Sequence record: MH791409.1
Source of the DNA: Escherichia phage EcWhh-1
Strand: one strand, 5' to 3'
DNA: 64,000 nt
Shown here: positions 6,162-57,186 of the stretch, one piece after another
How positions within the stretch are numbered: the first letter of the stretch is position 1
Layout: every line of letters begins with the position of its first letter
The notes under the pieces: model-generated
Told to the model about the DNA's origin: nothing
Databases searched by the model: none
Seen by the model: the letters and a program-made list of their open reading frames with translations, nothing else
Program-made: the position numbers and the translations under genes

Positions 6162-6516
6162 AGGTAGCTTTAATCAAGGCAACAACTTCTGCCGCATTTT
6201 TGTGGTTTACCTGTACATGGATAGTTTGGGTATCAACGGCAGGAGCATCGCCATCAACTTCCAGGAAGTGACAGAATTCCCATTCACCGAGTTCAAAGTA
6301 CTCATCAGAATCACCCATACTATTCAGGATGGTGCCATCTTTCATTTCAACTTTTTCAACAAAATAATCACCTTCAATATAACGCATATCCAAGACTTTG
6401 AAGGAATTGCCATGTTGTTCCATCAACCTGACCATGCACGAATTATCATCAGGACTAAAAGCGATGAATTGTTTTTTAGCAGCAGGGTCTAATACGTAAA
6501 ATTTACCAATTTCCAT
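6151..6516 (-). CDS. hypothetical protein, paralogue of 5766..6161
   Basis: 121-aa ORF; tandem duplicate of the downstream gene; RBS GAGGAAA before the ATG. Confidence 0.55.
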   Translation of the reverse strand: MEIGKFYVLDPAAKKQFIAFSPDDNSCMVRLMEQHGNSFKVLDMRYIEGDYFVEKVEMKDGTILNSMGDSDEYFELGEWEFCHFLEVDGDAPAVDTQTIHVQVNHKNAAEVVALIKATFGI

Positions 6517-6545
6517 TTTTATTTCCTCATGTAGTTGATAGGTCT

Positions 6546-6574
6546 ATAGTATCATGTTTAAAGGCATTGTAAAC
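6546..6574 (-). promoter_or_regulatory. early promoter, conserved family
   Basis: GTTTAC-N17-TACTAT-AGACCTATCAACTA upstream of ORF 6151..6516. Confidence 0.6.
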
Positions 6575-6583
6575 CATTAAATG

Positions 6584-6610
6584 CCAAAAAGGGAAGACCG
6601 AAGTCTTCCC
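6584..6610 (-). terminator. rho-independent terminator downstream of gene 32
   Basis: Minus-strand hairpin GGGAAGAC-UUCG-GUCUUCCC followed by a U-run (plus strand 6591-6610 with aaaaa at 6586-6590). Confidence 0.7.
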
Positions 6611-6626
6611 ATTATAAATCAATAAC

Positions 6627-7532
6627 TTATAGACCAGCTAACAGGTCGTCCAGACCATCGTCATCAGAAGGACTTACTGATGGTTCAGGAGTAGTGGAAC
6701 GGGCCGGTGTAGACGGTTTGGAATCATATGCATCAAGGTCTGCACTGAATGCGTCCAGGTCATCACCAATCTTATCAGCAGCTGCAGAAGCTTTAGCGGC
6801 AGCACCACCAAGAGCAGCAGTACCAACAACTTTCTTAAACTTGGCTTCGTTAGTTTCAAAGGATTTGAACTCGAGCAGTTTAGAAAGGTCGTGCATTTCT
6901 TCCATCAATTTAGCTTGGTAAGCTTCATCATTGATGTTAGGAATTTCAGACTGACCCATGAATTTGGAATCGTCGTAGTTTTTGAAGTCGCCAACTTTCT
7001 TAGATTTCAGTACGAAGTTAGCACCATCAAACGGACATGTTACGTCAACCGGCACTTCACCGATATCAGTATCAACTTCAACCATCTGGTTGATTTTATC
7101 CATAATTTTCTGACCGAAACGGAATTTAAACACTTTACCTTCGTTAGCAGGCACTGCACTATCCTTAATAACAAGGATGTTAGCCCAGAAGGAAGTTTTA
7201 CGTTTCATCAGTTTGTATTCGGCGTTATTAGTATTATACGTATCGTTCTGGTTCATGTATTTACATACAGGACAAGAATCGAAATCGCCGTGAGTAGACG
7301 TACAGTTTTCAATGTACCATTGACCATTTTTCTTAAAGCCGTGGTTAACGAGCTTAACGAATGGAGATGGATTTTCTTCGTTTTTCGAAGGTAGGAAACG
7401 AATTACCGCAGTACCAACACCATTGTCATCTTTCAATTTCCATTCAGCTTTATCATCGGAAGAGAAAGAAGAACCACCTTTCATTGCAGACAGTTGAGCA
7501 GCCAGTTGGGAAGGGTCTTTACGTTTGAACAT
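6627..7532 (-). CDS. 32: single-stranded DNA-binding protein gp32
   Basis: 301-aa [17 protein letters not shown]...[11 protein letters not shown]...CPVC zinc site, acidic C-terminus; closely matches recalled T4 gp32. Confidence 0.96.
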
Positions 7533-7600
7533 ATTATTTACCTTAGCAGATTTTAGCAGTTGTATTTTATTAACAGTTTTTAACAGATTGAGTTAGTATA
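7533..7600 (-). promoter_or_regulatory. gene 32 5' leader; candidate autoregulatory translational operator
   Basis: A/U-rich leader carrying four direct heptamers CTG(T/C)TAA on the minus strand immediately upstream of the gene 32 start. Confidence 0.5.
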
Positions 7601-7622
7601 TTAACACATTTGATATGAAGCA

Positions 7623-8276
7623 TTAAAACTTACAAGATTTGATAGTTTCAATGAACAATTTACGAGCTTCTAAATTATCGATTATAAGAATTTTCTTATA
7701 AGCATTTAATTTAGTCGAATACTTAGACCACACTAAATCGTTGGTCTGTTCATCATGTTTATTTATTATGTCCATAAATGAATCAAGCAAAATAAACGTT
7801 TCGAACGAAATAACATTCGATTGAAGGAGCTTAAAAATATAGCTCGAGTTAACTTTTTTATTATAATCAAAAATTTCAGAAAGCGCTTTAACTTCCACTT
7901 TCTTACTGAAATAATAGATGTTTTTGATATCGTCCTCAAAAACTTGTTTTATTCTTTTAAGTCTACCAATATATTCTCGGTAAAAGACTAAGGCGTCAGC
8001 ATCACTGATGTCGCCAATCCATGCGTCTTGGTTAGCCACCAAGTTACTCATGAAGATAAGAGCAAGCTCTTTCAAAGTGTATTTATCACTCAATTTCTCG
8101 AAGAAATATTTGTCACGACGTTTTTGGTAAGCCGTATCAGAGATTCGCATGACCCAGTTATATTTTATAACGTCGTATTTGGCGTTGAAGTGATGTTTGA
8201 GCATTAAGTATAGTGAATATACGCTCTTACCATTCACCATACGATTATTGTTTGGTGGCATGCGAATCTTAATCAT
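7623..8276 (-). CDS. 59: helicase loader gp59
   Basis: 217-aa ORF starting MIKIRMP...GKSVYSLYLMLKHHFNAKYDVIKYNW, matching recalled T4 gp59. Confidence 0.93.
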   Translation of the reverse strand: MIKIRMPPNNNRMVNGKSVYSLYLMLKHHFNAKYDVIKYNWVMRISDTAYQKRRDKYFFEKLSDKYTLKELALIFMSNLVANQDAWIGDISDADALVFYREYIGRLKRIKQVFEDDIKNIYYFSKKVEVKALSEIFDYNKKVNSSYIFKLLQSNVISFETFILLDSFMDIINKHDEQTNDLVWSKYSTKLNAYKKILIIDNLEARKLFIETIKSCKF

Positions 8277-8575
8277 AACAAGAAATCCAGGGTATTAGTT
8301 TTTTGCGTTCGTGCCATTGAAGGACGAAGCAAGTTATCATCAATGGCCTCGTTCATAATTTTATCAATAATTCCTGCAGGCAAATAACGAGCAAAGTTAC
8401 CTTCAGGGATGCTGTTCTCTTCCAACCATGTGGTGGCCGCTTCGAGATAGCTACATCCTTCAGCCTCAACAAAGGCCTCAATATCAAGGCCATTCTGTTG
8501 TTTATTTACCAATACATGGACAGGTTCAGAAGCGGTATTAACCGCTCCATCAAAATCATTCAAAGATTGTGTCAT
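8273..8575 (-). CDS. 33: late transcription co-activator gp33
   Basis: 100-aa acidic ORF in the T4 gene 33 position between 59 and dsbA. Confidence 0.85.
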   Translation of the reverse strand: MTQSLNDFDGAVNTASEPVHVLVNKQQNGLDIEAFVEAEGCSYLEAATTWLEENSIPEGNFARYLPAGIIDKIMNEAIDDNLLRPSMARTQKTNTLDFLL

Positions 8576-8834
8576 ACAGTTCTACCACTTCAGTTTTTTC
8601 GTCTTCGAAACGTTCACGAGTGCCTTTATGATACAAGGAGAACAGCTGGTTAAACATTTTACCGTCTACACCAAGTTCAGTCTTAGCACGGTCTTTGATA
8701 TCTTTAATTTCGTCACCATATGCTTCCATTTTTAATTTGGTATCGGAAGCAGTTTTAATCAACTGGGCTAGGGTATTACCATGTTCTTCTTGGTTGAATT
8801 CAACTTTCACTTTTTCTTTAGCCATTATATTCAC
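8556..8834 (-). CDS. dsbA: dsDNA-binding protein DsbA
   Basis: 92-aa ORF in the T4 dsbA position; overlaps the gp33 start. Confidence 0.8.
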   Translation of the reverse strand: MNIMAKEKVKVEFNQEEHGNTLAQLIKTASDTKLKMEAYGDEIKDIKDRAKTELGVDGKMFNQLFSLYHKGTRERFEDEKTEVVELYDTIFE

Positions 8835-8835
8835 C

Positions 8836-9783
8836 TTAATAAAAATCAGCTACTGTAGCAGTTAGTTTAGACAAACCCGATTTAACGAAATAAGGATAAA
8901 CTTTAGATTTCGAAGGTTTGTTATACGTATTATATCTTTCAGTAATTAAAGCAACAATATCATCTGGAATAAAGTCCATATCAATTAAGATTTGGTTTTC
9001 ACAGAAACGTTCATATTGTTCCTCAGTAAGAAGTGTTTTAATTATATCATGGTCATAATAATTCAGAGCAATTGCTTCAAGTTCCTTAGCACGAGTGCTA
9101 GGAGTACGTTCACCTTCAACCATTGTCAACCAATAATCACCACGAACTTTAATACTTGCAACGTTATCCTTGCGGTCACCTTTAATAACCTTAGTCACAC
9201 AATCAAGCAGAGCATCACCAGATTTTGTTTTGACGAATTTTTTCTGCATTGGAGACCATTGTTTTACACCAGGGAATTTATGAAGTTGGGTAAAGTCACC
9301 ATCAGAAGAACCAATCATAACCGGATGGCCTTTAGCCGTAAGGATACGAGTCAACACAGCAATATGGTCATCGGCCTCGATTGTATCGATATTCATAACA
9401 ATATAAGGCATATTTTGTTCCAGTTCATCCACAATAATATGCATTGCAGTGAATAAGCCTTCCCAATCAAATGGTGATTCGTCACGTGCCTTAGCACGGT
9501 TTTTCTTATAATAAGAAGAATAACGACGACGCCAATAACCTGATTTAGAGTTATCAACACAAATGATTAGTTGGTTGTAACCTTGTTTTTTAAAGTCTTT
9601 AATGTTTTTCTTGATTGAATTCAAGACGAGATGTCGAAGCATTGCTGTTGTTACTTTAGGAAATCCAGCGTTTTCACCAAATTCTTGGAAGGCTGCCGCC
9701 ATAATGATTTGGCTGAAATCCAGGAGTAAAAATCCATCTTTTTGTTGGTCTTCTTCAGGAAGTAAAAAATCTAAATCGTTCAT
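8836..9783 (-). CDS. rnh: RNase H / 5'-3' flap exonuclease
   Basis: 315-aa ORF with FEN-family motifs (ICVDNSKSGYWRR, EADDHIAV, SSDGDFTQL); matches recalled T4 Rnh. Confidence 0.94.
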   Translation of the reverse strand: MNDLDFLLPEEDQQKDGFLLLDFSQIIMAAAFQEFGENAGFPKVTTAMLRHLVLNSIKKNIKDFKKQGYNQLIICVDNSKSGYWRRRYSSYYKKNRAKARDESPFDWEGLFTAMHIIVDELEQNMPYIVMNIDTIEADDHIAVLTRILTAKGHPVMIGSSDGDFTQLHKFPGVKQWSPMQKKFVKTKSGDALLDCVTKVIKGDRKDNVASIKVRGDYWLTMVEGERTPSTRAKELEAIALNYYDHDIIKTLLTEEQYERFCENQILIDMDFIPDDIVALITERYNTYNKPSKSKVYPYFVKSGLSKLTATVADFY

Positions 9784-9890: not shown

Positions 9891-12800
9891 ATGGCTGATA
9901 TTTTAAAACCTGCATTCCGTGCTACATCCGGACTCGATGCTGCGGGCGAGAAAGTTATCAATGTTGCCAAAGCCGATTACAATGTACTAGATGATGGCGT
10001 CAACGTTGAATTCTTTATAGATGAGAACACCATCCAGGCGTACGACGAGACGCGCGGATATAAGAAAGGGTTTGCAGTAATCCATGACCAACGTATTTGG
10101 GTTGCTCAACGTGATATCGCTGCACCAGCTGGAACTTTTGTACCTGGTTATTGGACCGCTACCCGTACTGACCCTAAATGGATTACAGTAGCATCTCCTA
10201 CACGCCAGCTGGCTTCCGGTGAATATATCGCAGTGGATTCTGCTGCTAGCTTTACTACATTTACCCTGCCTCCTAACCCTACTGATGGCGATACCGTCGT
10301 AATCAAGGATATCGGTGGCCGTGTAGGTTATAATGAAATCAAGGTTCAATCTAGTTCTGCTCCAGGCGGTGGTAATCAGAAAATTGTTCGATTTGGTAAC
10401 CAGTTCTCTGAAACTCTGATAACCAAACCTTTTTCTTATAACATGCTTATCTTTGCTAACCGCCTTTGGCATTTCTGGGAAGCCGGTAACGAAGAACGTG
10501 GTATTCGTGTAGAGCCTAACACTGCACAGTTCCAATCACAAGCAGGTGATAACGTTTTACGTCGTTATACTTCAGGTGCAGTAATTAAATTTACTCTTCC
10601 CAAGTATGCGAACCAAGGTGACATGGTTAAAACCGTAGATATCGATGGTCTTGGAAGTAAGTTCCACTTAATCGTTGAAACCTTTGATGCATCGTCTTCA
10701 TTAGGTAAGCCTGGCCAGCATAGCATGGAATTCCGTACCTCTGGTGATGGGTTCTTTGTTTATAACTCTGTTGAAAAAATGTGGTATGTTTGGGACGGCG
10801 ACCGCCAAACTCGTCTGCGTGTTATTCGTGATGACGTAGAACTTTTGGCTAACGAAAGTATTATTGTTTTTGGTGAGAACAATTCCACACCTCAAACAAT
10901 TAATATCACGTTACCTACCGGTGTAGCTATTGGTGATACTGTTAAGATTGCTCTGAACTATCTTCGTAAAGGCCAGACTGTAAATATCAAGGCAGTTACT
11001 GGTGATAAAATTGCATCTTCTGTTCAGTTGCTTCAGTTCCCTAAACGTTCGGAATATCCACCAGACACTGAATGGGTATTGGTTGATTCATTAACCTTTA
11101 ATGGTAATATCAGTTATACTCCGGTTATTGAGTTGAGTTATATCGAAGACCATGTAGAAGATAAAAACTATTGGGTTGTTGCTCAGAACGTTCCTACGGT
11201 AGAACGTGTGGATTCTAAGGATGATTTAACTCGTGCTCGTCTCGGTGTTATTGCCCTTGCGTCTCAGACCCAGGCAAACGTTGACCATGAAAATAATCCT
11301 GAAAAAGAACTTGCAATTACTCCGCAGACTTTAGCCAATCGTGTTGCCACTGAAACTCGTCGTGGTATTGCTCGTATTGCTACTACTGCTCAGGTGAACC
11401 AGGACACAACCTTCGCATTCCAGGACGATTTGATTATTTCTCCTAAGAAATTAAACGAACGTACTGCAACCGAAACTCGTCGTGGTGTAGCCGAAATTGC
11501 TACGCAACAGGAAACTGATTCCGGTGTTGACGATACCACCATTATTACTCCTAAGAAGCTACAGACGCGCCAGGGCACTGAAAGTCTTTCAGGTATTGTA
11601 AAATATACCTCTACGGTAGACACCACTCCTGCGACTGCTAGGGACACTGTAGGTACTAACGTTTATAATAAGAACGTAGGCAATTTGGTTATTTCTCCTA
11701 AAGCTTTAGACCAATATAAAGCTACTCAAGCCCAACAAGGTACGGTATATCTTTCTACCCAGTCAGAAGTTAATACCGGACAATCTGCTAGCGGATTTGC
11801 TAACAGTGCAGTTTCTCCTGAAACGTTGCATGCCCGTGTGGCTCTTGATACTCGTACAGGGTTAATTGAAATTGCTACGCAAGTAGAGACCGATACTGGA
11901 ACAGATTATACTCGTGCGGTAACGCCTAAAACGTTAAATGATAGGAAAGCTACGGAAGGATTGACTGGTATTGCTAGAATTGCAACCCAAGCAGAATTTG
12001 ATGCAGGCACGTTAGATAATGTTATTTCAACTCCGTTGAAAATTAAAACAAGACTTAATGATACTGCTAGAACTTCTGTCTCAGCAGCCAGTGGTTTGAT
12101 TGAATCAGGAACCTTATGGAACCATTATACACTAGATATTAGAGAAGCAAATGAGACCCAACGTGGTACCGCTCGTCTGGCTACCCAGACCGAAGTCAAT
12201 GTTGGCACCGATGACAAAACCATCATCACTCCTTTGAAATTACACTCTAAAAAATCTACTGAAAGTTCTGAAGGTATTATTCGTGTTGCAACGAATACCG
12301 AAACCACTGCAGGAACTTCTAAAGTTCTGGCTGTAAGCCCTTCTGGTTTAAAATATGTAGTACAGACCGAAACCACTTGGGAAGCTACTGCACTTCGTCG
12401 TGGATTTGTTAAATTGACCGAAGGTGCTTTGACTTACTCAGGAAATAAAGTTACCGGTTCTGGTGTTAAATTTAACTCAGGTACAGGCCTTTATGAGAAC
12501 GACGATACTGTTCTGAATGCAGCCAACTATCCTAAAACAGGTTATGCGGTTTCATCTTACGAGATGAATAAAACTTTACAGAACTTTTTACCTATAAATG
12601 CTACGGCTGTGAACTCTGAGAAATTGGATGGTCTGGATTCACTTCAGTTCATTCGTAGAGACGTCGACCAAACGGTTAATGGTTCTTTAACCCTGACCAA
12701 ACAATTGAACCTGGCAGCCCCTCTGGTGTCTTCTAGTACTGCTACATTTACGGATGTTACAGCTACTAATTCTACCTTTGGTACAGTGAACGTTGTTAAC

Positions 12801-51884: not shown

Positions 51885-52016
51885 TTACTTAATTCCTCGG
51901 TTGATAGCCTTATCGACTATCTTCCGAACTTCTCGTTTCTCGAGCCACACTAATAATAGCAAGCCTCCGAAAGAGAATAATAACAAACCTATAAAAAGCA
52001 ATAGAGGACCTAGCAT
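51885..52016 (-). CDS. 43-aa hydrophobic peptide
   Basis: Translation MLGPLLLFIGLLLFSFGGLLLLVWLEKREVRKIVDKAINRGIK; start overlaps the stop of the upstream gene. Confidence 0.45.
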   Translation of the reverse strand: MLGPLLLFIGLLLFSFGGLLLLVWLEKREVRKIVDKAINRGIK

Positions 52017-52903
52017 ACTACGTCCTCATAACGTGGCATTTCGTATTCAGAATGAATATTGGCACCGAAATAAATGAATTCAGCCAGACCAGGATGGAAT
52101 ACTAAACCTGGGTTCTCATGATAAATGATATGTGGTCTTGATTTCAGAATTTGATAATATTCAACCTTACTCGGTTTGAATTTAATAATCTCTACATCAG
52201 GACGATAGTCTTCGCGCTTAAATGAATCATTAGGGTCGGTGATATAAAGACGAGCACCTTCAGCGGCAGCTTGGTCTACAACTCTTTCGAATTGATAACA
52301 CTTATCCGAAATACGGAATGGATGGAAAATACCATCAATTTTAATAGGCGCTAGACCTTCAGAGTAACGCTCAATTACTGCAGGATTAATTACCTTTTGG
52401 TCTACAAAAATCTTATCAGAGGATGCACCTCGTGACATCAGGACGTCTTTCTGGCATTGATTCAAGACTGTAGTATAAAGTGAACGTTCAACTGAAGCCA
52501 CATCAATATCAATGAACTCGTCGATATAATAACGAGGAACTTCAGGGTCCATTGTGATATTAAAGTTGAATTGTACAGTATGAGCACCATCATAACCGGT
52601 GATATCGGTCACCAGTCCTGAGCAATCATAGTATTCGATTAGTGAATCGACTACAAACTCATTTTCAGACCAGAAATGTTTACGGGTTTCATAAGCATTT
52701 TCTTTATACCAAAGTGGTACGAAATTCAGTTCTGGGAATAATTCAATGCATTCTTTGATATCGCTCGAATTTCTAGGATAAGCCAGATAATCACCTGGAC
52801 GAGCACGATTTAAATGGAGTTGAAAATTACCGTCCTTAAGGACGGCATATTCACCTGTTTCGTAACTACGCATACTGAAAATAGGAACGATAAACAAACT
52901 CAT
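52010..52903 (-). CDS. hypothetical protein in the T4 bgt position; candidate DNA-modification transferase
   Basis: 297-aa ORF, translationally coupled to the upstream hydroxymethylase; no motif I can assign by eye. Confidence 0.5.
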   Translation of the reverse strand: MSLFIVPIFSMRSYETGEYAVLKDGNFQLHLNRARPGDYLAYPRNSSDIKECIELFPELNFVPLWYKENAYETRKHFWSENEFVVDSLIEYYDCSGLVTDITGYDGAHTVQFNFNITMDPEVPRYYIDEFIDIDVASVERSLYTTVLNQCQKDVLMSRGASSDKIFVDQKVINPAVIERYSEGLAPIKIDGIFHPFRISDKCYQFERVVDQAAAEGARLYITDPNDSFKREDYRPDVEIIKFKPSKVEYYQILKSRPHIIYHENPGLVFHPGLAEFIYFGANIHSEYEMPRYEDVVC

Positions 52904-53598
52904 TTCAGGAAACCTCGGACGTAGTCAAAATCACGTTCAAACACGTGTGCACTTACCATGGTGTGGGAATATGTACCTAAACCGACACCACACTGTTCAG
53001 CAATAAATGCCATCAGTTTACCCTGCAGATAGAAATCCAGCTGCATAACAACGGCGCAGTTTTGTGAACGCATATGAGTGTGTGCATACAGACGTCCATC
53101 ACGAATATAATATGTTACCGAATCGGTACACGGATATTCTAGGGATTCGTCAGAATCAAGGAGGGCTTGGTCTTGTTCTTGGAGAATTTGGAACACAACT
53201 CGTCTCGAGTTAGGCTTTTCTTTAAGCTCTTTAAGTAGGGCTGGGAGTTGGGCCACAATTCGAGGGCCATAGAAAGTGTTGAAGTTTGCAGGCAATACGT
53301 CACTTTTCGGCTTATCAATGAACTTAGCAACATTAGGGTATTCCTTAAATGCTTCGGCAGCGTCAGTACCACCAGAAATCATAAATTTCCAAAAGGATTC
53401 GGCATATTCATAACTAATACGATTGATACGTGGGTCGGTGAATTTATAGGTGCTTGCATCCAGTACTTCTACCGAAGCAGAACCAATTTCATAACAACGT
53501 CCGATACGAGAATCAACTGCAAACTGTGGAGCTTCCAGGATTTCTTCGTTCATTTGTTTAAATGCATTTTCAAAACTAACAGCGGTAATGTGTTTCAT
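52900..53598 (-). CDS. 42: pyrimidine hydroxymethylase of the thymidylate-synthase family, dCMP-hydroxymethylase-like (gp42 homologue)
   Basis: 232-aa ORF; SRR, PCTD (catalytic Cys), YYIRD and MRS blocks align with recalled T4 gp42; Asp 31 residues after the Cys (QLDFY), where thymidylate synthases carry Asn. Confidence 0.8.
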   Translation of the reverse strand: MKHITAVSFENAFKQMNEEILEAPQFAVDSRIGRCYEIGSASVEVLDASTYKFTDPRINRISYEYAESFWKFMISGGTDAAEAFKEYPNVAKFIDKPKSDVLPANFNTFYGPRIVAQLPALLKELKEKPNSRRVVFQILQEQDQALLDSDESLEYPCTDSVTYYIRDGRLYAHTHMRSQNCAVVMQLDFYLQGKLMAFIAEQCGVGLGTYSHTMVSAHVFERDFDYVRGFLK

Positions 53599-54131
53599 TT
53601 ATTCACCTTATTTTCAATATATTCGTTCAGACGTTTTAATTCTACCATATCAACATTAAGCAAATTATTATGGCCGTCATGATTTAAGATTTTAAACACG
53701 TTTTCAAAACATGTTTCGTATTGCCGGATAGTTAGGTTGAACTCATCTTTGGTTAATTTAATAAGGTCGTCTTCGAAGTCTTCGTCTAATGGATTGCGAG
53801 TTAAAATAACCTCGATAACGTTAAATTCGGATTTAAACCCTTTCCAATCTTCCAGTTCTACATAAGGGTCCATTTCACCACGAAGGAATCCTGAGTAAAC
53901 AATATTACTTGGATAACCACGGTCAAGGATATAAACGAAATTAGGGTCTAAAAACTTATACAGAGTTTCAACTAAAGCCTTATCGTTATCAGTTCCTAAT
54001 GAAATACACTTGCCATTAATCTTTTTAGGAAAATCAATAAGGCGGTATTTCTTATTGGATAACAGATTTTTAATTAAAGTGGACTTCCCGGAATTATCCG
54101 GGCCGTCTATAACAATGATTTTTGGATTCAT
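53595..54131 (-). CDS. P-loop kinase (nucleotide/nucleoside-kinase-like)
   Basis: 178-aa ORF with N-terminal Walker A IVIDGPDNSGKST. Confidence 0.65.
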   Translation of the reverse strand: MNPKIIVIDGPDNSGKSTLIKNLLSNKKYRLIDFPKKINGKCISLGTDNDKALVETLYKFLDPNFVYILDRGYPSNIVYSGFLRGEMDPYVELEDWKGFKSEFNVIEVILTRNPLDEDFEDDLIKLTKDEFNLTIRQYETCFENVFKILNHDGHNNLLNVDMVELKRLNEYIENKVNK

Positions 54132-54526
54132 GGATGATAGGCCTTATAACTATCAAGAGTTCCTTCACGAACCATTTCTTTAAAGTGGTCAGGACGGATT
54201 GCTCGGTCATCGATGATAAAAGTATAACTCGGCTTATGCGTAAGCAGATTATGATATTTCAATCCAATCTTTTCAAGGTTCTTAACCAATGCAGGAACTA
54301 CTTCAACCAAGATTCGACCTGGGCCACATGAAGTCATGCCACGGGCAGTGAATAATGTAATCTCGTACCCTTCATCATAAAGCTTATTAATCATGGACAC
54401 CATTTCGGTGTCCGGTTTAAAGTTCTCATAATCACGGTCATGGTTCCAAATCGTGATTGTGTTATCGATATCAAAACATAAATGTGGCTTATTTTCTACT
54501 CGATGCGACATTAAATTTTCTTCCAT
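54128..54526 (-). CDS. HAD-superfamily phosphatase (small, capless)
   Basis: 132-aa ORF with motif I CFDIDNTIT (DxDxT) and C-terminal IIDD motif IV. Confidence 0.7.
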   Translation of the reverse strand: MEENLMSHRVENKPHLCFDIDNTITIWNHDRDYENFKPDTEMVSMINKLYDEGYEITLFTARGMTSCGPGRILVEVVPALVKNLEKIGLKYHNLLTHKPSYTFIIDDRAIRPDHFKEMVREGTLDSYKAYHP

Positions 54527-56184
54527 TGTTTGTGGAGTTCAGTAGAACCTGTAGGTTTATATTTTACACCAGTTTCCTGGTCAAGCAAAACCCACTTATC
54601 AGGACAACGAGTAATAATTTGAGCCGTGATAGGGTCACGAACTTCATCGACAAATTCACCAGTAATAAGCTTACGCTTATGAGGATGCCGCTTCAGCAGC
54701 ACACTCAGTTGATACAAACCGTTATAATAAGCACCCAGAGCTTTCAGAGGGTTATTCTTAAAGTAACCTGCCAGCGCCATCCAAATAACAGCAATCCAGA
54801 GCTTGTGCTTAAATGTGCACATAGGAATATCGTCTAAAGGCATAACCTTTTCGATATCAACGAATACACGAGTTCCGTTACGAGTTAATCCACCCCATAG
54901 AGGGTCTGAGTTAAATTTGTCATAGCCATCGATAGAATAAAGCACCTTAGCTTCATCATAAATCGCAGGGCCTTTAGAACTATTACCGAAATAACCACGT
55001 GGGTCGATGATTTTAATATCACCTTCGTCCGACAGCATAATATTACTGTAGTGCGGGTCGCCATGAATAAGTTGGTACGGTTCTTTATGTTCAGACAGAA
55101 TTTCTAGTGCATGGCGGAGAAGTTTTTCGGGGTCGCCTACTTTGAAATCGTTAACATAGGTAATGCCCTGTGGAGCAAAGCCTTCAATCAATCCGGCAAT
55201 AGAAGCATTACGAATAAGGACCTTGTCCAACACTTCTTTCTTAACATCGGAATACCATTGCTCATCGGACGGGTTATCGATAGTTCCACCGAATGAACGT
55301 AATGCACTAATGACCTTATAAACCATGAGGACTTTAGTTTCTTTGGACATAAACCGGTAGGCATCTGCCATGGTACGACCAAAGATACGTTCCATTTTAA
55401 TGAATTCGCCTGGAGAAAAGTCTACAATGCTAGGAACGAATTCAGAATCAATAGAATTATACCAATTGATTTCTTTAGATTGAATTTCTTTACCTAATTC
55501 GTTAGTTGGTACTTTAATAGCCAGATTCTCGGTGAACTCTAATTTATTAAATTCACGGTTAATTTCAGAATCTTCATGGGCCTTGGCAAGTTTCAATTTG
55601 TCACCGACATCAACTACAAAATCCAGTTTACGTTCAGTCAAATAGACCATTGAATCCAGGTTATCAGCAAGGTCTTCGCCATAATTAGAACGGTCGAAAC
55701 CTGTCCAATTGGCTACCTGATACAAACCAACTACACCGCCACCGGTACCAATTTCACGTAAGTACGGTTCTTCAAATGTAAAGCGACAGTCAGTTCCATA
55801 GGTATAACAATAGTCGTTACCCCATTCAACTTTATGACCGATAGGAATGATGTCACACCAGTTAAACAGGACATTATGGCCAATGATATCTTCGGCAATG
55901 CAATCGATAGCATGAGCTGAACCATTAGCAACATCAACGTTACGAATAGTGAATTTAGGCTTATCACCAGTAATCATGTTAATGGATTTAATATAGCCTT
56001 TAACGAGGTCGTTAAATTTGCTGTGAATAACCAGAATAATTTCATCTGATTGGTTACTATACAAATCATACAAATGTTTTAATACCGTATGTTGTTTGTA
56101 GTTAACCAATACCTTTGGGATTTCGTTAGTAATTGGATACAACCGTGAGCCAAGACCTGCGCCTAAAATAACAACCTTTTTCAT
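54511..56184 (-). CDS. bifunctional protein: N-terminal sugar-1-phosphate nucleotidyltransferase domain fused to C-terminal APH/choline-kinase-like kinase domain
   Basis: N-terminus MKKVVILGAGLGSRLYPITNEIPKVLV matches the RmlA/GlmU G-x-G-x-R-L-Y-P-I-T...PK signature; C-terminal region has Brenner motif LIHGDPHYSNIML plus IIDPRGY. ORF-track start is 56214; the ATG at 56184 has a GAGGAA RBS. Confidence 0.75.
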   Translation of the reverse strand: MKKVVILGAGLGSRLYPITNEIPKVLVNYKQHTVLKHLYDLYSNQSDEIILVIHSKFNDLVKGYIKSINMITGDKPKFTIRNVDVANGSAHAIDCIAEDIIGHNVLFNWCDIIPIGHKVEWGNDYCYTYGTDCRFTFEEPYLREIGTGGGVVGLYQVANWTGFDRSNYGEDLADNLDSMVYLTERKLDFVVDVGDKLKLAKAHEDSEINREFNKLEFTENLAIKVPTNELGKEIQSKEINWYNSIDSEFVPSIVDFSPGEFIKMERIFGRTMADAYRFMSKETKVLMVYKVISALRSFGGTIDNPSDEQWYSDVKKEVLDKVLIRNASIAGLIEGFAPQGITYVNDFKVGDPEKLLRHALEILSEHKEPYQLIHGDPHYSNIMLSDEGDIKIIDPRGYFGNSSKGPAIYDEAKVLYSIDGYDKFNSDPLWGGLTRNGTRVFVDIEKVMPLDDIPMCTFKHKLWIAVIWMALAGYFKNNPLKALGAYYNGLYQLSVLLKRHPHKRKLITGEFVDEVRDPITAQIITRCPDKWVLLDQETGVKYKPTGSTELHKQWKKI

Positions 56185-56244
56185 TATCTGTTCCTCAAGT
56201 GAATGTAGGTACATTATACACTATTTTTAATAAATTTCTATTGC

Positions 56245-56745
56245 TTAAATCTTATCTTTACCGTATTCCATGCACTGTTCTACTGCAGCAGGCACTTTGG
56301 TCTTAAGCTTGTTGATTTGTTTCTTATAATCACGAGCCTTATCGAAGCTCTCGGTTTCGAGCATTTCGTAATAACGAGCCTCGTGGACAGAAATCTGTAG
56401 ATTGATATGGTTTACACACATGGCATACAGTTTCTGCTTTTTGTACAAATCATCTTGGCGCTTCATTTCTGCCTGGTGTTTGGCTAGTACCGCTTCACGC
56501 TTAGACTCTTGTTCACGTTGGAATTCGATTTCCCTTTGAGCATATTTTGCACAGTTATTACCACATTGATTATTAGCTCGGGTGTACACAAGTCCAGAAC
56601 CGGCACGGAATTTCATTTCGCCGTCGAATTGTTTCTGTTCAGCTGCGATACGAGCTTTACCAACTTCATCAGCAGAAACTGCATCACCGTATTGGACTGC
56701 GCAACCTGATAGGAGCATACTCATTGCGATAATTAACTTTTTCAT
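56245..56745 (-). CDS. putative lipoprotein with coiled-coil region
   Basis: 166-aa ORF with signal peptide and lipobox (LLSGC). Confidence 0.55.
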   Translation of the reverse strand: MKKLIIAMSMLLSGCAVQYGDAVSADEVGKARIAAEQKQFDGEMKFRAGSGLVYTRANNQCGNNCAKYAQREIEFQREQESKREAVLAKHQAEMKRQDDLYKKQKLYAMCVNHINLQISVHEARYYEMLETESFDKARDYKKQINKLKTKVPAAVEQCMEYGKDKI

Positions 56746-56752
56746 AATATCC

Positions 56753-56890
56753 TCAATTAAAACAGTTATACTTAATTTGTGCTATAAGAATAATCCATCC
56801 CATGATTAATGTTGGAATCATTGGAGGAATTGCCACTGCCCAATAAACGGTAAAGGCAGCCATTATAAGAAATAAAATAATTATCTTCAT
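56753..56890 (-). CDS. 45-aa hydrophobic peptide
   Basis: Translation MKIIILFLIMAAFTVYWAVAIPPMIPTLIMGWIILIAQIKYNCFN; ATG overlaps the imm stop. Confidence 0.45.
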   Translation of the reverse strand: MKIIILFLIMAAFTVYWAVAIPPMIPTLIMGWIILIAQIKYNCFN

Positions 56891-57123
56891 TGTTTAACGA
56901 TAATGATTTGTGCGTTTGATTTATGTTCAGCGACTATAGCCCAGATTAAAGCCACTACCCAACCAATCATCGTCCACCCTAACAGGAGATTAAGGAAGAA
57001 GATTCCGACATTGCTACGAGTGCCTCGCAGAAGGGCCAGAATCCATGGTAAAAAGTAACCAATGAACATAATAACCAGAGAACCGAATCCTAAAACACCA
57101 GCACTAACGATTAAAGCTTCCAT
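56887..57123 (-). CDS. imm: superinfection immunity protein Imm
   Basis: Start at internal Met MEALIVSAG; two TM segments and a YFLPWILAL motif typical of the Imm family; T4 position next to gene 43. Confidence 0.75.
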   Translation of the reverse strand: MEALIVSAGVLGFGSLVIMFIGYFLPWILALLRGTRSNVGIFFLNLLLGWTMIGWVVALIWAIVAEHKSNAQIIIVKQ

Positions 57124-57154
57124 TGTAATTTCCTCTAAGTAGTTGATAGGAAGG

Positions 57155-57184
57155 ATACTACCACGTTCCTTGTGGTATGTAAAC
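57155..57184 (-). promoter_or_regulatory. early promoter upstream of imm
   Basis: GTTTAC-N18-TAGTAT followed by the conserved CCTTCCTATCAACTA leader. Confidence 0.55.
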
Positions 57185-57186
57185 AC

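Follow-up and report, generated by a model that had tools for sequence, protein, structure and literature searches.

A gene of the window, a 64,000-nucleotide stretch of Escherichia phage EcWhh-1 (MH791409.1), encodes a kinase and a nucleotidyltransferase fused in one polypeptide. The window is that of a JS98-like Dhakavirus, a T-even phage. The protein is the Dhakavirus orthologue of AfhE (RB69 gp52:53, DLP3 gp82), and it probably serves the same route, from arabinose-5-phosphate through UDP-arabinofuranose to DNA containing arabinosylated 5-hydroxycytosine. This DNA hypermodification, which has recently been resolved in phages, influences how sensitive they are to restriction, type IV and CRISPR defences. 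The fused enzyme is proposed here as the source of its sugar donor.

The gene is the Dhakavirus copy of a published phage enzyme and not a new discovery. The original prediction had regarded the fusion as unusual, but full-length copies occur in 367 phage records. The RB69 fusion was described by Thomas et al. (2018), where Dhakavirus IME08 gp43 is named as a full-length homologue. In every Dhakavirus record the gene is labelled 'hypothetical protein', and the adjoining HAD phosphatase is mislabelled 'phosphoheptose isomerase' in many database records. The practical value lies in annotation, as both genes can now be named in the Dhakaviruses, a group that includes several candidate therapeutic phages.

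Start codon and domains of the fused protein

The open reading frame was first listed as 54511..56214 on the minus strand, encoding 567 residues. The frame itself holds, but its start probably does not: the protein most likely begins at the second ATG and contains 557 residues. This start is preferred because the first ATG lies within the TATAAT box of a promoter-like site, a GAGGA sequence precedes the second ATG, and the homologues, along with PHROG 4098, begin aligning at residue 11 of the longer frame. The called length is also 557 residues in 13 of the 15 cluster members listed. The promoter-like site is the joint-best match in the region (10/12). A scan of the region showed no enrichment of promoters over shuffles (16 found versus 18.6 expected), and the promoter call is therefore drawn from position and match quality only.

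Features of the fused gene and its operon (window coordinates)
Feature	Position	Strand	Details
Bifunctional kinase/nucleotidyltransferase CDS, AfhE / RB69 gp52:53 orthologue	54511..56184	-	557 aa + stop (most likely start); from ORF, start choice, homology, AF2 model
Shine-Dalgarno GAGGA	56192..56196	-	7 nt upstream of second ATG (56184)
Promoter-like site TAGAAA-16-TATAAT	56213..56240	-	30-nt gap after upstream gene; overlaps first ATG (56214)
N-terminal sugar-1-phosphate nucleotidyltransferase domain	55570..56184	-	about residues 1-205
Nucleotide-binding signature LGAGLGSRLYPITNEIPK	56113..56163	-	residues 8-24
APH/choline-kinase-fold kinase domain	54685..55569	-	about residues 206-500
Brenner catalytic loop HGDPHYSN	55042..55065	-	residues 374-381 (H374...N381)
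Mg-binding Asp394 (IIDPRG) of kinase domain	55003..55005	-	
C-terminal beta-rich tail	54511..54684	-	residues 501-557; AF2 pLDDT 70-85
Small HAD phosphatase, AfhF / RB69 gp51 orthologue	54128..54511	-	127 aa; alternative start 54526 gives 132 aa
Tmk-like P-loop nucleotide kinase, RB69 gp45 counterpart (putative role)	53595..54131	-	178 aa; PHROG 761; ATGA overlap
Thymidylate-synthase-fold 5-hydroxy-dCMP synthase homologue	52900..53598	-	232 aa
DNA arabinosyltransferase 1 homologue, RB69 gp46:47 counterpart	52010..52903	-	297 aa; PHROG 3891

The N-terminal domain adopts the RmlA/MurU fold; its GxGxRLxPxT...PK loop is intact and its acidic metal ligands are present. In the 557-residue numbering its signature reads G8-A-G10-L-G12-S-R14-L-Y-P-I-T...P23-K24. 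The kinase domain contains an ATP-binding Lys/Glu pair (K224 and E238), the H374-N381 loop and D394, which are invariant in the homologue alignment; both motif sets are invariant in 44 diverse homologues. The C-terminal tail is missing in distant homologues, whose query coverage is only 86-88%. The AF2 model of the protein is of high confidence and consists of two domains, and its top structural matches include MurU, LicC, and LicA.

Domain-level HMM searches, proposed in the original prediction as a check, recover both halves. The Pfam models NTP_transferase (E 3e-8, 33.8 bits) and APH (E 1e-5, 25.5 bits) both match above their gathering scores of 21.2 and 23.2, and PHROG 4098 aligns along its entire length (E 1e-267). 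The gene and its two motifs are thus real and beyond chance, and the prediction that a nucleotidyltransferase and an APH/choline-kinase-fold kinase are fused to produce an NDP-activated donor is borne out. The analogies it drew with AmgK/MurU and LicA/LicC are apt at the level of fold. The NCBIfam MurU models score only 20-24 bits against cut-offs of 250-370 (MurU equivalog, 23.6 versus 370). Judged by sequence scores, membership in the MurU, LicC or AmgK equivalogs is rejected and the likeness is one of fold only. NCBIfam yielded no model specific to the fused-enzyme family, and a PDB sequence search for a solved AfhE returned generic nucleotidyltransferase matches only.

The operon and the proposed route to UDP-arabinofuranose

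The fused gene is the first of a translationally coupled five-gene operon. It is followed by genes for the AfhF-type HAD phosphatase, the Tmk-like kinase, the 5-hydroxy-dCMP synthase homologue, and the arabinosyltransferase. Neighbouring genes overlap throughout the operon, by ATGA or TAATG, and the start of the HAD phosphatase overlaps the stop of the fused gene (TAATG). The locus is that of RB69, between uvsX and gene 43.

The HAD phosphatase is 62% identical to RB69 p051, carries the DxDxT motif as FDIDNT, and matches PDB entries 9iqw (E 7e-54) and 1xpj (E 4e-12). It is predicted to be an arabinose-1,5-bisphosphate 5-phosphatase. The Tmk-like kinase is 38% identical to RB69 p045. The genome has a single such transferase, the arabinosyltransferase 1 homologue. 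It is 65-69% identical to RB69 p046/p047 (67%), and a PDB sequence search found no solved relative of it. The 5-hydroxy-dCMP synthase homologue is 80% identical to RB69 gp48, a 5hodCMP synthase by experiment according to PMC13326640, and matches PDB 9iqu (E 1.7e-126). The 9iqu sequence is 98.7% identical to RB69 gp48 and only 80.5% to the window homologue; the crystallised system is therefore of Mosigvirus type. Entries 9iqu and 9iqw presumably come from HY126, and the characterised system as a whole appears to be of Mosigvirus type.

In the sections of PMC13326640 on this family, which build on He et al. 2026 and Mahler et al. 2025, AfhE is a D-arabinose-5-phosphate 1-kinase and UDP-arabinofuranose pyrophosphorylase that serves arabinosyl-5-hydroxycytosine DNA. 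The HY126 biochemistry described in that text runs from arabinose-5-phosphate through the 1,5-bisphosphate to arabinose-1-phosphate. The AfhE kinase converts D-arabinose-5-phosphate into arabinose-1,5-bisphosphate, and the nucleotidyltransferase can work only after a separate HAD phosphatase, AfhF, has stripped off the 5-phosphate (PMC13326640). The fused protein had been predicted to form a self-contained route. It does not, because the orthologous kinase acts on a phosphorylated sugar and AfhF, here the next gene, must remove the 5-phosphate (PMC13326640).

The order of reactions, the arabinose, and the UTP are taken from this literature on orthologues, and we infer that AfhE chemistry holds for the 43%-identical window protein. 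The C-terminal APH-fold kinase would transfer a phosphate from ATP to O1 of D-arabinofuranose-5-phosphate, with arabinose-1,5-bisphosphate as the product. The adjoining, translationally coupled HAD phosphatase would take off the 5-phosphate, and the N-terminal RmlA/MurU-fold domain would join arabinose-1-phosphate and UTP to form UDP-arabinofuranose. The operon glycosyltransferase would then attach arabinose to 5-hydroxycytosine in the DNA of the phage, the base having been made as 5-hydroxy-dCMP by the thymidylate-synthase homologue. The resulting arabinosylation would shield the phage genome from host nucleases.

The original prediction held that the substrate could not be read from the sequence. 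It can be inferred from context, namely the flanking RB69 orthologues (80%, 67%, and 62% identity) and links to KpsF/GutQ-type isomerases. Proteins of 920-946 residues join an HAD domain, a KpsF/GutQ isomerase domain, and the two-domain unit of the fused enzyme. A jumbo-phage-like homologue (32% identity) has an SIS gene directly upstream. The isomerase fusions in distant relatives provide Rosetta-stone support for arabinose-5-phosphate as the substrate.

No match to an arabinose-5-phosphate isomerase was found in the window or in the complete JS98-equivalent Dhakavirus genome, and the sister lineages contain no cluster-linked isomerase. The substrate would therefore have to come from the host KdsD/GutQ pool, which feeds Kdo biosynthesis, and the host probably supplies it. 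Across the collection, the isomerase is present in 270 records versus 367 for the fusion, and the isomerase deficits in Escherichia (39) and Enterobacteria (5) phages match the Dhakavirus records. A full Dhakavirus genome contains no homologue of RB69 p003, and neither the U32-like gene nor a second transferase is present in the Dhakaviruses. With a single transferase, mono-arabinosylation is expected. That these three genes, the isomerase included, are missing appears to be a new point. Such an isomerase-less, single-transferase variant may go beyond the literature, and it predicts mono-arabinosylation together with dependence on host arabinose-5-phosphate.

A divergent variant and alternative readings

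The fused protein is 43-45% identical over its full length to the RB69 gp52:53/DLP3 gp82/HY126 AfhE family. Identity is 41-44% to RB69 p052/p053 and 43-44% to the collinear full-length Mosigvirus form (98-100% coverage, E about 1e-123). Full-length homologues also occur in Acinetobacter, Serratia, and Shewanella phages. Those of Serratia 92A1 (47%) and Shewanella Thanatos-1 (43%) belong to phages reported to contain arabinosylated cytosine. The HY126 copy was not found among the near-identical records or the 90% protein clusters.

The Dhakavirus enzymes form a deep, separate clade that includes Marfavirus and a Providencia phage. Core genes of the window are 84-90% identical to the Mosigvirus type, despite 43% for the fused enzyme; the Mosigvirus enzyme is closer to that of an Acinetobacter phage from another subfamily (56%). 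Identity to RB69 is 62-86% for the neighbouring proteins, whereas the fused enzyme (43%) and the Tmk-like kinase (38%) are discordantly more diverged. Their genes are adjacent only in the Dhakavirus/Marfavirus/Providencia-phage variant, and the order is rearranged relative to the RB69 type, with the fused enzyme, HAD, and Tmk genes contiguous. By these comparisons the two proteins appear to come from a diverged form of the module that Marfavirus and the Providencia phage also have. This, too, appears to be a new point.

The clade carries GAGLGSRL in the nucleotide-binding loop, versus GAGLATRL elsewhere, and HGDPHYSN in the catalytic loop, versus HGDPNFSN. Of 170 positions conserved to 90% or more among the other homologues, the clade keeps 143 (84%). 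Since about half of the clade-specific substitutions match residues of distant homologues, the changes suggest old ancestry or allele replacement and not remodelling. On the same two counts, a remodelled active site in the diverged enzyme was largely rejected.

These features bear on an alternative that we consider unlikely, in which the variant uses another host sugar phosphate needing no isomerase (for example ribose-5-phosphate, the C2 epimer), or another NTP, and makes a different 5-O-glycosyl cytosine. The missing isomerase, the discordant divergence of the two proteins, their unique gene adjacency, and the substitutions in the NTP and catalytic loops would all fit a changed specificity. 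Pentoses are also isobaric, and no biochemical or DNA-composition data for Dhakaviruses were found in the literature searched. Against it, the transferase, which must recognise the donor, is 67% identical to that of RB69, compared with 39% between RB69 and Serratia phage 4S and 46% between RB69 and Acinetobacter phage. The latter two transferases come from lineages related to arabinosylating phages. The retention of highly conserved positions and the match of half of the substitutions to distant homologues argue the same way. In addition, the hosts all make arabinose-5-phosphate for Kdo. If specificity had changed, common coliphages would carry a 5-O-pentosyl cytosine isobaric with, and distinct from, arabinosyl-5-hydroxycytosine. 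In a milder version, the chemistry would be the same and the phages could not modify their DNA without KdsD/GutQ of the host, which would be a host requirement not recognised before.

A different order of reactions is improbable. The HAD phosphatase would act first, turning arabinose-5-phosphate into free arabinose, which an AmgK-like anomeric kinase would phosphorylate before the N-terminal domain forms the NDP-sugar, as in salvage. The nearest solved relatives of the kinase fold do use unphosphorylated choline, aminoglycosides, and glucosamine. However, the bisphosphate order mirrors the HldE/GmhB logic of ADP-heptose synthesis. Table 1 of PMC13326640 labels the RB69/DLP3 proteins in the salvage sense ('dephosphorylates Araf5p to Ara', 'Phosphorylates Ara to Araf1p'), but the text of that source gives the bisphosphate route from HY126 biochemistry and likens the small HAD to heptose-1,7-bisphosphate phosphatase-type enzymes.

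Chance motifs without fold support, or an inactive relic, are suggested only by the modest single-sequence Pfam E-values and are effectively refuted by the high-confidence two-domain model, the strong fold matches, the invariance of all catalytic residues, the conservation of at least 95% across 51 Dhakavirus records, and the full-length occurrence in 367 phages.

The AfhE reading is thus preferred. The points counted against it are the 43% divergence, the missing isomerase, the clade-specific loop substitutions, and the Mosigvirus-type reference system.

Comparison with known systems

Heptose pathways are composed of a GmhA SIS isomerase, an HldE or HddA kinase, a GmhB HAD phosphatase, and an HldE C-domain or HddC nucleotidyltransferase. 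They are analogous to the window system in pathway logic only. Their kinases are of the PfkB or GHMP fold, whereas the window kinase is APH/protein-kinase-like, and the HldE transferase fold also differs; the fused protein has no Pfam or NCBIfam match to HldE-type PfkB or cytidylyltransferase-type domains. They yield heptose for an LPS or S-layer product, whereas the window system is proposed to use a pentose for DNA decoration.

AmgK/MurU and LicA/LicC share with the window enzyme the pair of APH-like kinase and RmlA-like nucleotidyltransferase folds. In these systems, unlike in the window enzyme, the two are separate proteins, the substrate is unphosphorylated, and no phosphatase step intervenes.

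The closest systems are those of E. coli phage HY126 (AfhE), RB69 (gp52:53, ORF53_52c), and Acinetobacter phage DLP3 (gp82). The window differs from them in its 43-45% identity, its separate deep clade, and its gene order. It also lacks the U32-like gene and second transferase of the RB69-type system, and the arabinose-5-phosphate isomerase of the canonical RB69/DLP3 cluster, which is a feature of the cluster and not of the enzyme. The RB69-type locus likewise extends from uvsX to gene 43 and contains the AfhF-type HAD, 5hodCMP synthase, arabinosyltransferase 1, and Tmk-like kinase. The enzymes share the two-domain architecture and a length of about 557-562 residues, are collinear over 98-100% of that length, and conserve all catalytic residues.

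The fused gene and its operon

The fused gene leads a run of five minus-strand genes that lies between uvsX and gene 43. The region shares 99.5% identity with Escherichia phage UP19 and 98% with JS98 and JS10 (genus Dhakavirus, Tevenvirinae). The JS98 equivalent of the window runs from ~140.4 kb over the genome end to ~34 kb. After the fused enzyme come a HAD phosphatase of 127 aa that carries an FDIDNT motif, a Tmk-like kinase of the P-loop type, a homologue of thymidylate synthase (TS), and finally a 297-aa protein without a Pfam match. Consecutive genes overlap start to stop as TAATG or ATGA, implying translational coupling within one operon.

The 567-aa reading frame of the original prediction is present exactly as described, and the predicted fusion is confirmed. 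A Pfam domain search matched NTP_transferase (residues 13-110, E 3e-8) and APH phosphotransferase (residues 356-427, E 1e-5) above curated thresholds, and the sequence contains both LGAGLGSRLYPITNEIPK, the nucleotide-binding signature, and HGDPHYSN, the Brenner loop. However, the frame probably starts too early. The first ATG (56214) sits inside the TATAAT hexamer of a promoter-like site, GAGGA precedes the second ATG (56184) at 7-nt spacing, homologues and PHROG 4098 align only from residue 11, and 13 of the 15 cluster members listed are annotated with 557 aa. The enzyme thus most likely comprises 557 residues.

In an alignment of 44 homologues (31-81% identity), G10, R14, P23, K24, D111, D192, D195, and K198 are invariant in the N-terminal half, and K224, E238, H374, G375, D376, N381, and D394 in the C-terminal half. 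A β-rich C-terminal tail is modelled at pLDDT 70-85, below the rest of the model; it is kept in Straboviridae homologues and missing from distant ones. A search of PDB sequences turned up no experimental structure for the fused enzyme.

The small HAD phosphatase is named 'phosphoheptose isomerase' in RefSeq and PHROG 1238, and 'capsule biosynthesis protein' in some records. The isomerase assignment is rejected, as the DxDxT HAD motif and matches to PDB 9iqw and 1xpj indicate a phosphatase.

Between the operon and imm lies a 166-aa ORF with a lipoprotein-type signal (MKKLIIAMSMLLSGC...) that matches PHROG 1754, a family of unknown function. In RB69, the arabinose-5-P isomerase gene sits at about this position, and none of the RB69 proteins p045-p055 matched the ORF. 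The interval from gene 43 to the operon contains imm and an RB69 p054-like micro-ORF. As called mechanically, the Imm ORF has 99 aa, and its start lies well upstream of that of the 78-aa gene in the annotation.

Coordinates of the features in the window and in related loci
Feature	Sequence	Position	Strand	Remark
Frame from first ATG	window	54511-56214	-	567 aa
Fused enzyme, most likely frame	window	54511-56184	-	557 aa
β-rich tail	window	54511-54684	-	residues 501-557
Promoter-like site TAGAAA-16-TATAAT	window	56240-56213	-	best such site in region
Small HAD phosphatase	window	54128-54526	-	
Tmk-like kinase	window	53595-54131	-	
Tmk-like kinase	Marfavirus EI (L007)	7151-7690		
Tmk-like kinase	Providencia phage PSTCR6 (L008)	7039-7599; 7684-8283		two tandem copies
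U32-peptidase-like gene	RB69 (L003)	6493-7662		p050
U32-peptidase-like gene	Marfavirus EI (L007)	7687-8847		
U32-peptidase-like gene	Providencia phage PSTCR6 (L008)	8511-9674		
166-aa ORF	window	56245-56745	-	
RB69 p054-like micro-ORF	window	56756-56863	-	36 aa
Imm superinfection-immunity homologue	window	56887-57186	-	Pfam E 7.5e-18
Four-domain proteins (HAD, KpsF/GutQ isomerase, nucleotidyltransferase, kinase)	metagenomic locus (L009)	10001-12775		P0067, P0077, P0090; metagenomes
Fused-enzyme homologue with upstream SIS-domain gene	315-kb contig (L010)	7297-9665		32% identity

Orthology to the RB69 system

The fusion and its NDP-sugar role in phage DNA modification are already known. Thomas et al. 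2018 showed RB69 ORF053c and ORF052c to be one 561-aa gene, suggested that it acts in making UDP-arabinose, and named gp43 of Dhakavirus IME08 as a full-length homologue; the window gene shares 93.8% DNA identity with the IME08 copy. According to Lee et al. 2026 (PMC13326640), RB69 and DLP3 DNA contains arabinosylated 5-hydroxycytosine, the TS homologue is the 5-hydroxy-dCMP (5hodCMP) synthase, and Dhakaviruses are among the lineages named for the syntenic cluster. The same paper, citing He et al. [quoted passage not shown] Prior publication covers Dhakavirus at the comparative-genomics level, and the literature searched yielded neither biochemical data for a Dhakavirus nor an analysis of the chemistry of Dhakavirus DNA.

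RB69 proteins searched against the window gave identities of 80% for the 5hodCMP synthase, 65-69% for arabinosyltransferase 1 (p046/p047), 62% for the HAD phosphatase, 41-44% for the fused enzyme, and 38% for the Tmk-like kinase. The full-length fusion occurs in 367 phage records. Among its homologues are proteins of two phages reported to have arabinosylated cytosine (PMC13326640), Serratia phage 92A1 and Shewanella phage Thanatos-1. Close PDB homologues exist for the TS neighbour (9iqu, 9iqc, 9ir2) and the HAD neighbour (9iqw). As 9iqu is 98.7% identical to RB69 gp48 and 80.5% to the window TS homologue, the structurally characterised system is Mosigvirus-type.

The isomerase-less Dhakavirus variant

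Pieces of JS98 were added to the window to give the equivalent of a complete Dhakavirus genome, which contains no homologue of the arabinose-5-P isomerase (RB69 p055), the U32-like p050, or the second arabinosyltransferase (p003). Collection-wide, the isomerase is found in 270 records versus 367 for the fusion; the deficits under Escherichia (39) and Enterobacteria (5) equal the Dhakavirus record numbers under those names. Klebsiella phages, 25 of which carry the fusion, are missing from the ten organism groups listed for the isomerase, of which the smallest has 3 records. The order fused enzyme-HAD-Tmk is common to Dhakavirus, Marfavirus EI, and PSTCR6, and the isomerase is absent from the sequenced gene 43-uvsX interval of the latter two. 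Only in this variant does the Tmk-like kinase adjoin the HAD gene. The U32-like gene is the cluster's best conserved (85-86% among RB69, Marfavirus EI, and PSTCR6); since Dhakavirus lacks it altogether, the product of the Dhakavirus cluster, whatever it is, can be made without it.

The genes of the module are discordant in divergence, with the Tmk-like kinase diverging in step with the fused enzyme. Dhakavirus and Mosigvirus share 84% identity in gp43, 90% in UvsX, 43% in the fused enzyme, 62% in HAD, and 38% in the Tmk-like kinase. The last three values are 56%, 63%, and 46% between Mosigvirus and an Acinetobacter phage of another subfamily, and 80%, 83%, and 77% between Dhakavirus and Marfavirus (gp43, 68%). 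Most simply, this pattern would reflect horizontal exchange of a module variant, with an old and divergent allele taking the place of the isomerase-plus-fusion segment. This reading is supported by 14 clade-specific substitutions in the fused enzyme, about half of which carry the residue seen in distant homologues, and by the retention of 143 of 170 highly conserved positions in the Dhakavirus clade. By sequence, the window enzyme is a divergent family member.

The RB69 transferase is 67% identical to that of the window, versus 39% for Serratia phage 4S and 46% for Acinetobacter. Since this donor-recognising enzyme is nearer to RB69's than those counterparts are, we infer the same product, arabinosylated 5-hydroxycytosine; a changed sugar or nucleotide specificity in the Dhakavirus variant is improbable.

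Host KdsD/GutQ makes arabinose-5-P for Kdo biosynthesis and would supply it to Dhakavirus, in which mono-arabinosylation is expected. The isomerase-less variant adds modestly to what has been published. In practice, the chief yield is better annotation, along with two predictions that are simple to test, namely mono-arabinosylation and dependence on host arabinose-5-P.

Proposed route and related pathways

Metagenomic proteins of 920-946 aa combine, in one chain, the nucleotidyltransferase-kinase unit with a HAD domain and an arabinose-5-P isomerase domain of KpsF/GutQ/KdsD type (E 3e-24), and a SIS-domain gene lies directly upstream of the 32%-identical homologue on the jumbo-phage-like 315-kb contig. 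The tie of the family to arabinose-5-P is therefore old and widespread. The contig also encodes a helicase, gyrase/topo IV, and Fpg. One four-domain protein, P0067, is surrounded by glycosyltransferases of the GT25, GT11, GT2, and GT1 families, and its neighbourhood lacks a TS homologue, which suggests that non-DNA glycans, too, are fed by the same route of sugar activation.

In the best-supported order, drawn from the published orthologues, the kinase half would phosphorylate O1 of arabinose-5-P, the HAD phosphatase from the next gene would take off the 5-phosphate, the N-terminal half would turn arabinose-1-P into UDP-arabinofuranose, and the operon transferase would place its sugar on 5-hydroxycytosine in DNA. 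The reverse order, with HAD acting first on arabinose-5-P and the kinase then on free arabinose, is still labelled in Table 1 of PMC13326640; it is a minor alternative, as the orthologue biochemistry cited there (He et al. 2026) gives arabinose-5-P, not the free sugar, as the kinase substrate.

The kinase-first order departs from the original prediction of a self-contained route starting from a free small molecule. Removal of the 5-phosphate falls to a separate HAD gene, required between the kinase and nucleotidyltransferase steps, so the route is not self-contained, and by the published orthologue biochemistry the substrate is an already-phosphorylated sugar. The proposed likeness to AmgK/MurU or LicA/LicC salvage holds for the folds, which the fused enzyme shares, but not for the two-step logic. 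ADP-/GDP-heptose synthesis (GmhA, HldE or HddA, GmhB, HddC) is nearer in pathway logic.
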